Part shown: piece by piece, positions 6,398-10,602 of the stretch
Numbering within the stretch: position 1 is the first letter of the stretch
Layout of the letters: each line of letters begins with the position of its first letter
NCBI GenBank assembly: GCA_039679545.1
Contig: JBDKUT010000126.1
Coordinates: forward strand, 1-10,602
Source of the DNA: Thermotogota bacterium
GTDB lineage: Bacteria > Bipolaricaulota > Bipolaricaulia > UBA7950 > UBA9294
Length of the DNA stretch: 10,602 bases
Direction: 5' to 3'
Notes under the pieces: model-generated
Database searches by the model: none
What the model was told of the DNA's origin: nothing
What the model saw: the letters and a program-made list of their open reading frames with translations, nothing else
Position numbers and translations under genes: made by a program

Positions 6398-7008
6398 GCG
6401 CGCCCTCCGTCAAGAGCCTTCTCGCCTGAGCGGAACGCCACGAGGTTCGCGTCCGCCGCCCGCGGCCACCGCGCAGCAATCGTCTTTTCCACGGCGTCCG
6501 CCCCGATGAGCTCGGACAGCACCGTCGCCGCGACGAGCGCACCGAGCGTGAAGACATTCGGGGACGCTGGCTTCCCGCCGACTGTGGGGCACAACGCCGG
6601 GTCGAGGAGGATCGGACGGGCTCCGGTCGCCGCGATCGCCTCGAGAACCCGCTCGCGGGTCGGGTACTCGTCGACGCCGAGCATGACGCCCGTCGGCTCC
6701 CAGACCGAGTCGTAGAGCACGAAAGCGCCTCCCGGCTTCGCGAACGCAAGACCTTTCAACGCCTCTGAACGCTCCATCGCCACCACCGCGTCCGCGCCGC
6801 CGACGCGGATCCTCGGGCCTGCGTCGCCCGCGCCGAGGCGAAGCTCGGCCTTCACGAACCCGCCGCGTTGCGCCATGCCTTTCGTCGGGGAGAACATCGC
6901 CTCGACGCCGCCCGCCGCGGCCGCGTCGAGGAGGATCTCGCCGATCGTCAAGACTCCCTGACCGCCCACGCCGATCAGGACAACATCACACCTAGTCGCA
7001 CGCGTCAC
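6394..7008 (-). CDS. iorB: Indolepyruvate:ferredoxin oxidoreductase beta subunit
   Basis: IGVGGQGVL, GMAQRGG, ERSEAL and NVFTLGAL motifs; GTGA overlap with the iorA stop. Confidence 0.9.
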   Translation of the reverse strand: MTRATRCDVVLIGVGGQGVLTIGEILLDAAAAGGVEAMFSPTKGMAQRGGFVKAELRLGAGDAGPRIRVGGADAVVAMERSEALKGLAFAKPGGAFVLYDSVWEPTGVMLGVDEYPTRERVLEAIAATGARPILLDPALCPTVGGKPASPNVFTLGALVAATVLSELIGADAVEKTIAARWPRAADANLVAFRSGEKALDGGRA

Positions 7009-9356
7009 GGTTGGCCTCCACGTCCCTTGTTGAAGCCCACTCTCGCCGGCTTCGACCCCAGCTGCTCACAGCTGACGTTCGGTGGGCAGCCCAGAGCGTG
7101 AGTAGGACAGGCCGTCGCGCACAGTCCGCATCCGTTGCACAGAGCCGCGTCCACCGTGATCCTCTCTCGGCCAGCAGAACCGGACGGTCCGGGCACTCGG
7201 TTCTGCCCTAACTGCTCGGCACCGTCGCTCGCCGAACAGCCAAGGGCCGGGCAGCCAGTCACTTTGATGCACCGCTTGCACAGCACGCACTTCGCAGCGT
7301 CGAAGGCGACTGCAGCAGCGGCGCCGTGGCGACGCGCCTGAATCGCGCACTCGCGACGGGCAAGAACAACCTTCACTCCCGGTTCTCTCAGGCCGTCGGC
7401 GAGAACGGTCGTCATCGCGGGCAGGTCGTAGGGATCGACGATGTCGAACCGATCGGCGCCAAGGGCGGGGAGGATGCGGGCGAGGTCGATGCGCCGACCG
7501 CCGGCCTGGAACGCGTCGTCCGTGCCCGGGTTCACCTGCATCCCCGTCATGGCGGTCCAACCGTTGTCCATGACGACGAGCGTAAGCGGCACGCGCCGTT
7601 GCACGGCGTTCAGGAGGCCCGGCATCCCTGCGTGGAAGAACGTCGAGTCGCCGATCGTGGCGATGACCGGAGTCTTGATGCCGGCGTGAACGTAGCCCTG
7701 CGCCAGGGAGACGCTCGACCCCATCGAGACCTCGTTCCATATCAGCTCGAACGGCGGGTTCATCCCGAGAATCGTGCAGCCGATGTCGCCGGTGACCATC
7801 ACGGCGTCCTTCGAGAGGCCCGCCTTCTTGATCGCCGCCTCGATCGCCATGTACGTCCCGCGGTGAGGACAACCAGCGCACACAGTGATGGGGCGGGGAG
7901 CGGGTTCAACGTCACCTCTCCGCCCCTGAGTATCACGAAGTGCGCTGGGGAGAACGGACGCGGTCCGTTCTCCTTTCAGGTCGTCCTCGGGGGGACGACC
8001 GACCCCGGCGCAAACCGTAATTGGCCGTGGAGCAGGCGTGGGCGATGCTCCACGGCTAGCGTCCTCTCTACCCGTTAGGTCTGCGAGGGGGAGAACCGTC
8101 GAAGATGGTTCTCCCTTAAGGTCGTGCTCGCCACCACGACCGGCACCGGCGCACACCGTGATGGGGCGAGGCGCCGCCTCGCAGACTGCGCCTCGCTCTT
8201 TGGGCTCACGGTTTGCGCTAGCGAGAACGGCCTTCGGCCCTTCTCGGCGCACAGGTGTGTCTTGGAGGGCAACCGATAGCCCCTCCACAACCTCGTCCAC
8301 CCCATACTCCCCGAGCCGCGACAGGGTCCCGTCGAGCTTCCCGACGATGCGGGCGTCGCTCTGGATCCGTCGCGCAGCAATCCACAACTCTCGCTCAAAG
8401 AACGGCTCCAGCTCTTCCAGAACAAGGACCGTGCCACAGTGGCGGAGGAGTGTCTCCGCCTCCTCTCGCGGGAAGGGCGTCGTCGCTACAGCCTTGAGGA
8501 TCGATACCTGTTCGGGTTTGAGCCCCGTGACGGCGAGCGCTTCGGTCAAGTAGGCGTAGGTCGACCCCACCGCAACGGCGCCGACGCCCCCGGGCTTGCC
8601 CGCGAGTCGAAGATCGTTCAGGCCCATTGCGCGGATCACGCCGCCGGCGACATTCAGCCGCTCGATCAGGTCCCGGTGCTGGTCAAGGCAGATCTTCGAC
8701 CCTGCCTTCGTGTAGCGGGCGATATCGCGTTCGAGGATGACACCACGGCCAAGTGCCGCGCCGCCGGACTCGCCAGCTCTCGTTTCACCGCCAGGTGGTT
8801 CTCCCGGCGCCAGTGTCGGCGGAGCCACTTCATCCGACACCTCGATGCAAGCACTGGTGAGCGCCACCGCCGTCGTGAGGCGAAGGAAGACGGGGGTTCG
8901 CGCCCGCTCGGAAACCTCGAACGCTGCGACGACGAACTCATAAGCCTCCGCCACCGACGACGGCTCGAGCATCGGAAGGTCCGAGAGGAGAGCGAACCCA
9001 CGCGAGTCCTGCTCCGCCATGCCGGCACTTACGCCGGGGTCGTCAACGACCAAGATAACGAGGCCGCCGTTCGTCCCGGAGTAGGCAATCGAGATCAGAG
9101 CGTCGTAGGCGACGTTCACCCCCGACATCTTCATCGTCGTGAGCGCTCGCTGGCCGGCCCACGCCGCACCGGCGGCAATCTCGAACGCGACCTTCTCGTT
9201 CGTCGACCACTCCACGTGTCGACCCGGAAGCTCCATCGTGAGCAGGTGCTCGACCACGCCCGTCGACGGAGTTCCTGGATACCCCGTGACAACTCGCACC
9301 CCTGACCGGAGTGCTCCCAGAGCGACAGCTTGGTTACCCGTGACGATTCGCCTCAT
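7005..9356 (-). CDS. iorA: Indolepyruvate:ferredoxin oxidoreductase alpha subunit, lengthened by in-frame insertions
   Basis: TGNQAVALG, GYPGTPST, EWSTNEKVA, EQDSR, CAGCPHR, GDIGC, GDSTFFHAG..DN (TPP motif) and two CxxCxxC...CP ferredoxin motifs. Confidence 0.93.
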   Translation of the reverse strand: MRRIVTGNQAVALGALRSGVRVVTGYPGTPSTGVVEHLLTMELPGRHVEWSTNEKVAFEIAAGAAWAGQRALTTMKMSGVNVAYDALISIAYSGTNGGLVILVVDDPGVSAGMAEQDSRGFALLSDLPMLEPSSVAEAYEFVVAAFEVSERARTPVFLRLTTAVALTSACIEVSDEVAPPTLAPGEPPGGETRAGESGGAALGRGVILERDIARYTKAGSKICLDQHRDLIERLNVAGGVIRAMGLNDLRLAGKPGGVGAVAVGSTYAYLTEALAVTGLKPEQVSILKAVATTPFPREEAETLLRHCGTVLVLEELEPFFERELWIAARRIQSDARIVGKLDGTLSRLGEYGVDEVVEGLSVALQDTPVRREGPKAVLASANREPKERGAVCEAAPRPITVCAGAGRGGEHDLKGEPSSTVLPLADLTGREDASRGASPTPAPRPITVCAGVGRPPEDDLKGERTASVLPSALRDTQGRRGDVEPAPRPITVCAGCPHRGTYMAIEAAIKKAGLSKDAVMVTGDIGCTILGMNPPFELIWNEVSMGSSVSLAQGYVHAGIKTPVIATIGDSTFFHAGMPGLLNAVQRRVPLTLVVMDNGWTAMTGMQVNPGTDDAFQAGGRRIDLARILPALGADRFDIVDPYDLPAMTTVLADGLREPGVKVVLARRECAIQARRHGAAAAVAFDAAKCVLCKRCIKVTGCPALGCSASDGAEQLGQNRVPGPSGSAGRERITVDAALCNGCGLCATACPTHALGCPPNVSCEQLGSKPARVGFNKGRGGQP
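7872..8246 (-). repeat. Three in-frame tandem units each ending in APRPITVCAG, built of stem-loops
   Basis: APRPITVCAG is encoded at 8145-8174, 8004-8033 and 7872-7901 (periods 141 and 132 nt). The spacers share DLKGE and VLP. Confidence 0.9.
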
Positions 9357-9514
9357 GGTCGACGGCCCACCTCTCGATCGCTCCTACACGCACGCAACAA
9401 GCTGTGACGTCTAGCCCACACGGGCGAATCGTGTAAGTGCGCCGCCGGCGCACGACGCGCGCCCAGCGCGCCGAGGGCCACCGCCTGATTACCCGTCACA
9501 ATCCGTCTCGTCAT
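9353..9514 (-). other. 53-aa upstream ORF beginning with a duplicate of the IorA N-terminus (leader peptide or gene-start relic)
   Basis: MTRRIVTGNQAVALGAL.. versus IorA MRRIVTGNQAVALGAL..; its TGA overlaps the iorA ATG (ATGA). Confidence 0.75.
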
Positions 9515-9536
9515 CTCACATTCCCACCGAACGATC

Positions 9537-9796
9537 CGCACACCCGCTCTCCCAACACGAACGTCGCACACAATGGTGCGGTGCGCTCTCGCGTGAGAAC
9601 CGAGCGCATAGACGCTACGCCCGTCCACGCACCGCACACGCCTCTCTCCCAACACGGACGTCGCACACGATGGTGCGTGCGCTCAACGACGTAGCGTCGT
9701 GAGCTTGGCTCTCGGCGCTTCGTCTTGGTGCCGAGAGCTTGCCTCCGACGTTCTCGCCGAGCGCATAGACGCTGCGTCCGTCCACACACTGCGCAC
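9537..9796. repeat. Imperfect tandem duplication (unit about 96 bp) with a variable central loop
   Basis: CTCTCCCAACACG(A/G)ACGTCGCACAC(A/G)ATGGTGCG occurs in units starting at 9537 and 9633; CCGAGCGCATAGACGCT occurs at 9600 and 9757. Confidence 0.85.
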
Positions 9797-9810
9797 CCCG
9801 AACCACGCCA

Positions 9811-9841
9811 GGAGAAGCCACCTCTCCCACGTGGCTTCTCC
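9811..9841. repeat. Perfect 11-bp inverted repeat downstream of the Mo-enzyme gene
   Basis: GGAGAAGCCAC-9 nt-GTGGCTTCTCC, with no U-tract. Confidence 0.7.
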
Positions 9842-9877
9842 CGAGCGACTCAGCAAGTCGAGCCGCCGAGTCGCCAG

Positions 9878-10602
9878 TCACCATCTCCGATCCGGCCTCA
9901 CCACGGTGCGGCTACGTTCGACGGCCTTCAGCACACGATCGGGGGTGAGCGGAAGCTCGAAGATCCGTACCCCGAGCGCGTCGGCCAGCGCGTTCGCCAC
10001 GGCCGGCGCCGCCGGCGTCAAGGACGGCTCGCCAATCCCCTTCGCGCCGAACGGCCCAATGCCGGTCCCCGACTCAAGCGCAATCACCTCGGTGTCCGGG
10101 AAGTCGCAGGACGTCGGGATCAGGTACTCGGCGAACGACGGCGTCTTCGTCACCCCCCTGTCGACGACGTACTCCTCCATGAGCGCGTAGCCGAGTCCCT
10201 GATGGCTCCCGCCGGCGATCTGGCCACGCACCGCGGCGGGGTTGATGGCTCGGCCGACATCGTGGCAGGCGACGCACTTCAGAAGCTCGATCTCGCCCGT
10301 CTCTGTGTCCACGGCAATCTCGACCGCCTGGGCTCCAAACGTAAAGTCCGGCCAGATGTCGCCCTGTCCCGTCTCCGGGTCGATCCCGTCCGTGAACGGC
10401 GCGTTGAACTGGGCTAGATTGGCGAGTGGCAGGCCACTGGCAGCAGCTCTTGCCGCGACGTCCGAGAGCGGCAAGCGCTGAGCGCCAGTGGCTCGGGAGT
10501 TCCCGCCCGCGGGAACTCCTGGCTCATGTCGACTCGCCGCCACCTCCGCGAGCGGAATCCCGACCTGCTCTGGTCCGGTCTTCCCACCGTAGGTCTCGGC
10601 TT
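9878..10602 (-). CDS. Xanthine dehydrogenase/aldehyde oxidoreductase family molybdopterin-binding subunit, C-terminal part (5' end outside the window)
   Basis: The frame is open to the window edge. Motifs VDTETG, HDVGRAINP, GQIAGGSHQGLGYAL and GPFGAKGIGEP (catalytic Glu). Confidence 0.92.
   Translation of the reverse strand, partial: AETYGGKTGPEQVGIPLAEVAASRHEPGVPAGGNSRATGAQRLPLSDVAARAAASGLPLANLAQFNAPFTDGIDPETGQGDIWPDFTFGAQAVEIAVDTETGEIELLKCVACHDVGRAINPAAVRGQIAGGSHQGLGYALMEEYVVDRGVTKTPSFAEYLIPTSCDFPDTEVIALESGTGIGPFGAKGIGEPSLTPAAPAVANALADALGVRIFELPLTPDRVLKAVERSRTVVRPDRRW

Follow-up and report, generated by a model that had tools for sequence, protein, structure and literature searches.

How does a gene come to be preceded by a second copy of its own start, one that encodes the same amino acids with different codons? 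The question is raised by iorA in a stretch of 10,602 nucleotides (nt) from a Thermotogota bacterium, here called the window. The window is the complete contig C126 (JBDKUT010000126.1) of a metagenome-assembled genome (GCA_039679545.1) of 163 contigs and 2.35 Mb, with 65% GC, a completeness of 93.6% and a contamination of 3.6%. We find that the upstream copy is the native start of iorA and that the working start lies within inserted DNA. The insert was probably spliced in by homology-facilitated illegitimate recombination (HFIR). The parts of the locus on which the argument turns are given below; ORF stands for open reading frame, GC3 for the G+C fraction at third codon positions, and G004 is a genome of the same genus.

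7005..9356, minus strand: functional iorA, 783 amino acids (Pfam POR_N, TPP_enzyme_C and Fer4)
9464..9514, minus strand: native iorA start, ATG plus 16 codons (MTRRIVTGNQAVALGAL), now the head of the upstream ORF; aligns with the G004 iorA start and directly follows a leader alignable to that of G004
9353..9514, minus strand: upstream ORF, 53 codons plus stop, out of frame with iorA; from the ORF reading, its TGA overlaps the iorA ATG
9357..9463, minus strand: spacer of 107 nt, the 5′ part of the inserted cassette, absent from G004
9267..9356, minus strand: foreign-lineage iorA 5′ patch, that is, the working ATG plus codons 2-30, with low GC3; delimited by GC3 and synonymous divergence
9463 to ~9267, minus strand: whole cassette of ~197 nt, comprising the spacer, the new ATG and ~29 low-GC3 codons

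Two starts encoding one peptide

The upstream ORF opens with ATG ACG at 9514, and its codons 3-17 (AGA CGG ATT ... CTG) occupy 9508-9464 on the minus strand. The iorA ATG lies at 9356-9354 and is followed by codons 2-16 (AGG CGA ATC ... CTC) at 9353-9309, also on the minus strand. A sequence-only reading of this DNA had described the first as a recoded duplicate of the second, and its description was accurate. The same 15 residues (RRIVTGNQAVALGAL) occur in both copies (15/15 identical) and 13/15 codons differ. The copies are 155 nt apart, hence in different frames, and the TGA of the 53-codon ORF overlaps the iorA ATG (CCATGAGG). Counted from the printed sequences, codons ending in G or C make up 11/15 of the upstream copy and 8/15 of the gene copy.

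The copies differ at 13 nt (32/45 identical), and 13/13 of these differences fall at third codon positions. When 13 random substitutions were put into the upstream copy, the peptide was kept in 0 of 200,000 trials, so the pattern exceeds what chance or in-place decay would produce. Taken together with the mixed directions of the substitutions, these results indicate that the copies diverged while both were functional.

A scan of the whole genome looked for neighbouring peptide pairs, identical over at least 10 residues, whose nucleotide identity is below 90%. Among the 26 pairs listed, the iorA start pair had the lowest nucleotide identity (0.71) and was one of four out-of-frame pairs; the remaining listed pairs were mostly in-frame domain repeats or paralogues at 82-89%. 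On contig C161, 12 identical residues (VLTLAFLERTRE) occur at minus-strand positions 442 and 1663, in neighbouring permease-like genes, with 75% nucleotide identity. We considered this pair as a second gene-start duplicate in the genome and rejected it, as it is an ordinary adjacent paralogue pair.

The upstream copy is the native start

Of 40 relatives searched with IorA, G004 was the only same-genus genome that holds the iorA 5′ end. It carries the same upstream gene as the window, and its iorA is uninterrupted and 83.8% identical to the window iorA. The G004 leader aligns with the window leader and passes directly into its own iorA start (MTTRIVTGNQAVALGALRAG...). Compared with G004, 155 nt are cleanly inserted in the window, as one block behind about codon 17-19. 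Agreement of the G004 codons is 37/42 nt with the upstream copy, as opposed to 31/42 nt with the gene copy. The clean insertion and the better codon match identify the upstream copy as the native start and place the working start within the inserted DNA.

It had been suggested from the sequence that comparing both copies with iorA of a relative would tell which is ancestral; by G004, it is the upstream one. The sequence-only reading had also offered two options: either the upstream copy is a translated leader, or it is the original start, displaced by an insertion after which the downstream copy was rewritten or locally hypermutated. The displacement is borne out by the G004 allele without the insertion. 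The rewriting is not supported, in view of the mixed substitutions, of a divergent patch that runs past the duplicate, and of the sharing of patch and spacer across lineages at 94-97%.

The iorA contigs of both same-genus relatives are short and end inside iorA. G005:C98 (L022) measures 3,333 nt and ends at ~residue 118; G004:C33 (L021) measures 2,989 nt and ends at ~residue 268. The locus thus assembles poorly in the genus, possibly owing to repeats and strain variation.

Foreign character of the inserted DNA

In iorA codons 1-30, GC3 is 0.5-0.6, compared with 0.8-0.9 over the remainder of the N-terminal domain; the median for the genome is 0.81 (5th percentile 0.60). The same codons are synonymously divergent: relative to G004, synonymous codon differences amount to 19/26 in codons 1-30 and 41/125 in codons 31-165 (p=0.0003). 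The low-GC3, divergent patch reaches ~codon 30, past the 15 duplicated residues. Its right boundary is gradual, at about 9290-9255 within conserved iorA codons ~26-32, where identity to G004 climbs from 0.69-0.73 to 0.87. The left junction is sharp and lies at 9464/9463 or up to 9455; its GCGCG-rich surroundings permit 5-7 nt of microhomology without fixing it.

No second copy of the spacer or the cassette was found elsewhere in this genome. The spacer looks like the native leader by eye, and we considered it as a diverged copy of that leader; this was ruled out, since 387/500 shuffles scored at least as high. A spacer that has no genomic copy and is unlike the native leader excludes a simple tandem duplication. 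In the corresponding test, the likeness of the two 155-nt units was confined to the 45-nt coding part. A Shine-Dalgarno-like sequence, GAGAGGTGG, lies in the spacer 10 nt ahead of the new ATG. By its GC3, its synonymous divergence from G004 and the absence of a spacer copy in the genome, the inserted DNA is foreign to the resident iorA lineage.

Why, then, do the codons differ so much? Eight orthologues belonging to other genera in the same family have iorA 5′ ends that encode a nearly invariant peptide, ...(I/L)(V/L)TGN(Q/E)A(V/L)ALGAL.... The DNA of these orthologues matches the patch at 58-65/87 nt (67-75%), and over the duplicated part the patch resembles the upstream copy (32/45) about as little as it does other genera (30-33/45). 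With a peptide so nearly invariant across genera, the apparent recoding is normal synonymous divergence between two iorA lineages, and no rewriting or hypermutation is needed to explain it. The earlier expectation that a dead relic should gather non-synonymous changes does not apply here, as the divergence arose while both copies were in working genes of different lineages.

The junction is present in independent contigs

We looked for the arrangement in contigs assembled from sequencing runs. A contig of X1, the possible source, covers 8800-9587 with 0 differences. In X2, another sample of the same study, a contig covers 8800-9465 and ends there; X2 has no cover over 9504-9547, a gap that is no evidence either way. 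A 276-nt contig of X3, from a different study, covers 9304-9579 with 3 differences and bridges both copies. X4, from a third study, yielded pieces at 9258-9465 (6 differences in 208 nt), 9436-9517 and 9436-9503 (9 and 8 differences, respectively). Runs X5-X21 contained small shares of the sampled sequence words, which again is no evidence either way, and the only RNA run from the source study contained almost none of them. In addition, an exact 24-nt scan of metagenome contigs returned L039 and L040, from two data sets, and both align unbroken through leader, upstream copy, spacer and gene. The arrangement is thus real and present in at least two lineages. Because the junction is bridged in X3, X4, L039 and L040, an assembly chimera, named at the outset as what could undo the case, is effectively excluded.

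A proposed scar of illegitimate recombination

We propose that the upstream copy is the original iorA 5′ end and that HFIR spliced in a fragment of an unsampled, more remote iorA lineage, leaving a scar. We give this reading a probability of roughly 0.7. HFIR is well established as a source of such events. As outlined in the available part of PMC3240628, it attaches incoming DNA through homology at one of its ends, the other end being joined without any. At this locus, the fragment would have joined the native gene just after codon 17-19 and would have brought ~107 nt of donor-lineage upstream sequence, the donor start codon and the ~29 first codons. Its downstream end may have recombined in homologous iorA around codon 30, and its upstream end may have joined without homology; one homologous and one non-homologous end are the pattern expected of HFIR. 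The net outcome would be the 155-nt insertion, with the native promoter, the leader and the first 17 codons left upstream as an open 53-codon ORF ending on the new start. iorA would then be translated from the imported ATG. Its expression may still be driven by the native promoter, and ribosomes ending the upstream ORF may re-initiate at the overlapping ATGA.

In the sections of PMC5361080 available to us, HFIR is proposed as the origin of displaced gene ends in effector-immunity arrays of type VI secretion systems and in Rhs and contact-dependent inhibition loci. The iorA locus resembles such scars and orphaned ends in that a resident gene end was pushed aside and persists beside the new one; here the conserved iorA body at ~codon 30 would be the anchor, and it is the native start that was displaced. 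The cases described in those sections concern 3′ ends or whole toxin/immunity modules at polymorphic loci. In contrast, iorA is a core metabolic gene, the affected end is the 5′ end and the insert is ~200 nt. Also unlike those described cases, the replaced part of iorA encodes the same protein, and the displaced start is still placed for translation and ends on the new start codon.

Several observations weigh against this reading. The run data are assembled contigs, not raw reads, and show presence and bridging only; the X4 pieces moreover differ in depth (16.3, 6.5, 5.98 and 3.8) and may stem from different organisms. The X4 depth of 16.3 lies downstream and that of 6.5 on the cassette, a hint that insertion-free alleles may persist in the population. 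A donor was sought by similarity in 74 family and 184 phylum genomes, where the spacer matched nothing and the best match to the coding patch reached 78% (G047). Exact matches were also sought in genome_contigs and in viral_contigs, with 2 patterns in each, and numbered 0. These searches thus brought no donor to light. The left junction shows no clear microhomology, its GC-rich GCGCG being ambiguous. The remaining points concern the history of the cassette, which was compared segment by segment between the window and the two metagenome contigs.

Native leader: window versus L039 53/86; versus L040 53/86
Upstream copy: window versus L039 42/51; versus L040 42/51
Spacer: window versus L039 101/107; versus L040 103/107
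Gene codons 1-16: window versus L039 47/48; versus L040 48/48
Codons 17-30: window versus L039 38/42; versus L040 40/42
Codons 31-69: window versus L039 102/117; versus L040 102/117 (the same figure for G004)

Between the window and L039 or L040, 186-191/197 nt of the cassette are identical (94-97%), whereas the flanks are 62-87% identical. In the other comparison, that of L039 with L040, the flanks are identical and 9/9 mismatches in the 714-nt overlap lie inside the cassette; if mismatches were evenly spread, the chance of this would be ~9e-6. Finally, G004 lacks the cassette although in the upstream molybdopterin-domain gene, which serves as a synteny anchor, it is closer to the window (84.6% nucleotide identity over 592 nt) than L039 is (79.3% over 803 nt). 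Synonymous codon differences from L040 follow the same line: the patch has 2/30, codons 31-165 have 43/124 (p=0.0016).

The contrast in identity between cassette and flanks, the L039/L040 mismatches and the G004 allele without the cassette show that the cassette has a history separate from that of its flanks. A one-off neutral scar alone does not explain this pattern; later lateral exchange or selection on the cassette is required. Exchange could work as follows. Relative to insertion-free alleles the cassette would be an island of non-homology, and it could travel between lineages by homologous recombination in its flanks. The flanks would later be replaced by local sequence as far as the point where homology ends. 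The alternative to this account is that the cassette is under selection. At cassette codons 20 and 28, the three alleles (window, L039 and L040) show three synonymous states each (GTG/GTA/GTC and CCA/CCC/CCG); the rest is nearly invariant.

Possible translation of the upstream ORF and selection on the cassette

In bacteria, an ATGA stop-start overlap supports termination-reinitiation. The locus resembles translationally coupled ORFs with such an overlap in that the upstream ORF ends on the downstream start codon. It differs from them in that the ORF ahead of iorA would be a by-product of recombination, with a dead copy of the following gene at its head; coupling, as read from the sequence, is putative.

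Such coupling is central to a different view of the cassette, which shares the recombinational origin and holds that the cassette is a selected regulatory module. The old start would load ribosomes, the upstream ORF would be translated, and re-initiation at ATGA would couple or tune iorA. Selection of this kind would keep the cassette near-invariant and aid its spread between lineages, and the cassette is indeed the best-conserved stretch of the 3-kb window-L040 alignment (96-98% in 100-nt windows). The constraint it invokes cannot by itself account for differences between L039 and L040 that are confined to the cassette.

The upstream ORF is open, of equal length and ends in ATGA in 3/3 full sequences (window, L039 and L040), as a module would have it. 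The ATGA overlap is not significant alone, because it is one of three frame outcomes and 2/3 frames are open through the spacer. Eight codons of the upstream copy differ between the lineages, five synonymously and three with residue changes (R>K, V>L, Q>E). This conservatism favours a translated ORF, but it is also expected if the copy was part of a working gene until recently. The spacer part of the ORF shows a mixture of residue changes (V>I/M, L>S, D>N, E>K), and the peptide looks unconstrained. The upstream ORF is not called as a protein in a collection of 5.8 billion proteins, where none of three candidates that had words in common with it scored; this carries little weight, as short ORFs seldom get called.

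Folding of the start regions was also compared. The native upstream start regions are weakly folded, with minimum free energies of -13.0 to -15.7 kcal/mol (95th percentile of random genomic 72-mers, -14.4), so that ribosomes should load more easily at the old ATG, again in favour of a module. Folding at the cassette start is ordinary (-25.0 and -19.8 kcal/mol; random genomic 72-mers, mean -23.5, standard deviation 5.7). We had considered that the cassette supplies a less structured initiation region; folding gave the opposite, and this selective rationale was rejected. Against a module, RNA structure was not significant, either in the cassette (z = -0.65) or over 9540-9300 (z = +1.35). Likewise, 0 sigma-70-like promoter or terminator-like sites were found in 9250-9900, a count that is uninformative in a GC-rich organism. 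Rfam gave no family at threshold, with one chance-level match (E 0.23) outside the cassette. A programmed frameshift or bypass from the upstream ATG was set aside as well: the iorA frame has two TAG stops in the spacer, and no slippery site was noticed. On balance, we regard a selected regulatory module as unlikely.

A broader form of the idea, which we hold to be slightly more doubtful still, is that selection maintains the ~197-nt cassette as a small module for replacing starts, passed between related species. It would provide iorA with a new leader and start, turn the resident start into a coupling upstream ORF that ends on the new ATG and so rewire translation of an operon for amino-acid fermentation. 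If true, this would account for a cassette that is the best-conserved segment across lineages, for near-identical strains differing only inside it, and for a closer relative without it.

An integrative element as a possible source

Elements that target a gene end and carry a replacement for it yield a gene-end duplicate with synonymous differences, and the e14 prophage of Escherichia coli, which leaves the icdC fragment, is one that carries an integrase. We therefore considered the iorA locus as the scar of an integrative element that targeted the iorA 5′ end in the manner of e14 and icd, with the element body later deleted. As in e14/icd/icdC, a gene end is duplicated, one copy working and one stranded, and the mostly synonymous differences come from different lineages (PMC13626634, in the part available). 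Repeated entry of such an element would, in addition, account for the separate history of the cassette. As described in that part of PMC13626634, an element of ~15 kb separates the copies in e14, at the 3′ end of icd; at iorA the copies are separated by 107 nt, the 5′ end is concerned, and there are no element genes and no shared attachment (att) core. The 107 nt hold neither an integrase nor any other element gene, the upstream ORF being the only ORF there. An att core common to both copies is missing, since the upstream copy ends at codon 17-19 and the patch at ~codon 30. Moreover, the left junction is identical in two lineages, which would need an identical secondary deletion in each, and neither cassette pattern had an exact match in viral_contigs (0 matches). 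An origin of this kind is very improbable.

Recoding in place as an alternative

An even less probable account is that the iorA 5′ end was duplicated in place and then recoded by local hypermutation, by diversity-generating mutagenesis or by divergence under selection on both copies. Identical residues in both copies with every difference synonymous are what it would predict. The 13 substitutions are of 8 types (G>A 3, G>C 3, T>C 2 and five others once each); such mixed directions carry no hypermutation signature, neither deaminase-like nor adenine-specific. Targeted hypermutation or a diversity-generating retroelement would call for a biased substitution spectrum and a template copy. Neither was found: the spectrum has the 8 types just given, and the genome holds no second cassette copy. 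Also against in-place recoding are the 107 nt between the copies, unlike anything nearby, two 155-nt units that are alike only over 45 nt, a divergent patch extending beyond the duplicated part, and a patch no closer to the upstream copy than to other genera.

The weakest alternative, a chimera in which assembly joined two strains or species, could draw on the window making up an entire 10.6-kb contig, in an assembly that has 163 contigs and 3.6% contamination, and on the X2 contig and one X4 contig both ending at 9465, at the junction, but has practically no chance given the contigs that bridge it (X3 over 9304-9579, X4 over 9436-9517 and 9436-9503, and two metagenome contigs from two other data sets) and two copies that, with 32/45 identity and differences spread throughout, offer no long identical word for mis-joining.

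Other features of the locus

The genes around iorA and the intergenic region upstream of it are as follows.

9878..10600, minus strand: 3′ part of the upstream gene, a molybdopterin cofactor-binding domain protein (Pfam MoCoBD_2, E 1.7e-36)
9536..9803, minus strand: intergenic region with dispersed repeat elements, outside the cassette; recognized by internal repeats and copies on other contigs
7008-6394, minus strand: iorB, downstream of iorA (Pfam POR)
6397-4253, minus strand: ADP-forming acyl-CoA synthetase, after iorB (Pfam Succ_CoA_lig and ATP-grasp_5)

The dispersed repeat has a core of ~60-77 nt. It is present in 2-3 copies in 9536-9803 and, at 89-97% identity, on six other contigs (C32 with 3 copies, C135, C8, C97, C17 and C163); it also occurs upstream of G004 iorA. 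It matched no Rfam family. Contigs of X1, X2 and X4 are far deeper at 9548-9635 than in the flanks.

iorA itself contains two variable linkers. At 8177-7872 (minus strand) there are three in-frame tandem units (141 nt, 132 nt and then the true domain start), each opening with (A/P)APRPITVCAG. The units sit in a linker ahead of the CAGCPH motif, and GC3 is low (0.5-0.6) over codons 401-500. The ten shared residues differ only synonymously (22/30 nt identical between units 2 and 3), and the remainder of the units has diverged. The copy number of APRPITVCAG is 3 in the window, 2 in G005, 1 in L006 and 1 in L040. The sequence-only reading had seen in these copies the same duplicate-and-recode pattern as at the iorA start. 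They are a different matter, namely in-frame tandem repeats in a variable linker. The second hypervariable linker lies at codons ~171-205 (8846-8757), where a lineage-specific Gly/Pro/Glu-rich insertion has a GC3 of 0.55-0.6. G004 lacks ~19 residues there, and the segment aligns poorly with G005 and L040.

Implications

The stranded iorA start adds one more case to a kind of recombination scar that is already known, and the separate history of its cassette is its one unexplained property. The locus serves as a worked example: where a peptide is highly conserved, two copies can share their residues and differ in their codons without any special recoding process. In practice, this iorA could be given a wrong start by gene callers or be misaligned in comparative pipelines. 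If selection or repeated transfer lies behind the history of the cassette, adaptive introgression would here act on the translation start of a gene through a very small unit.

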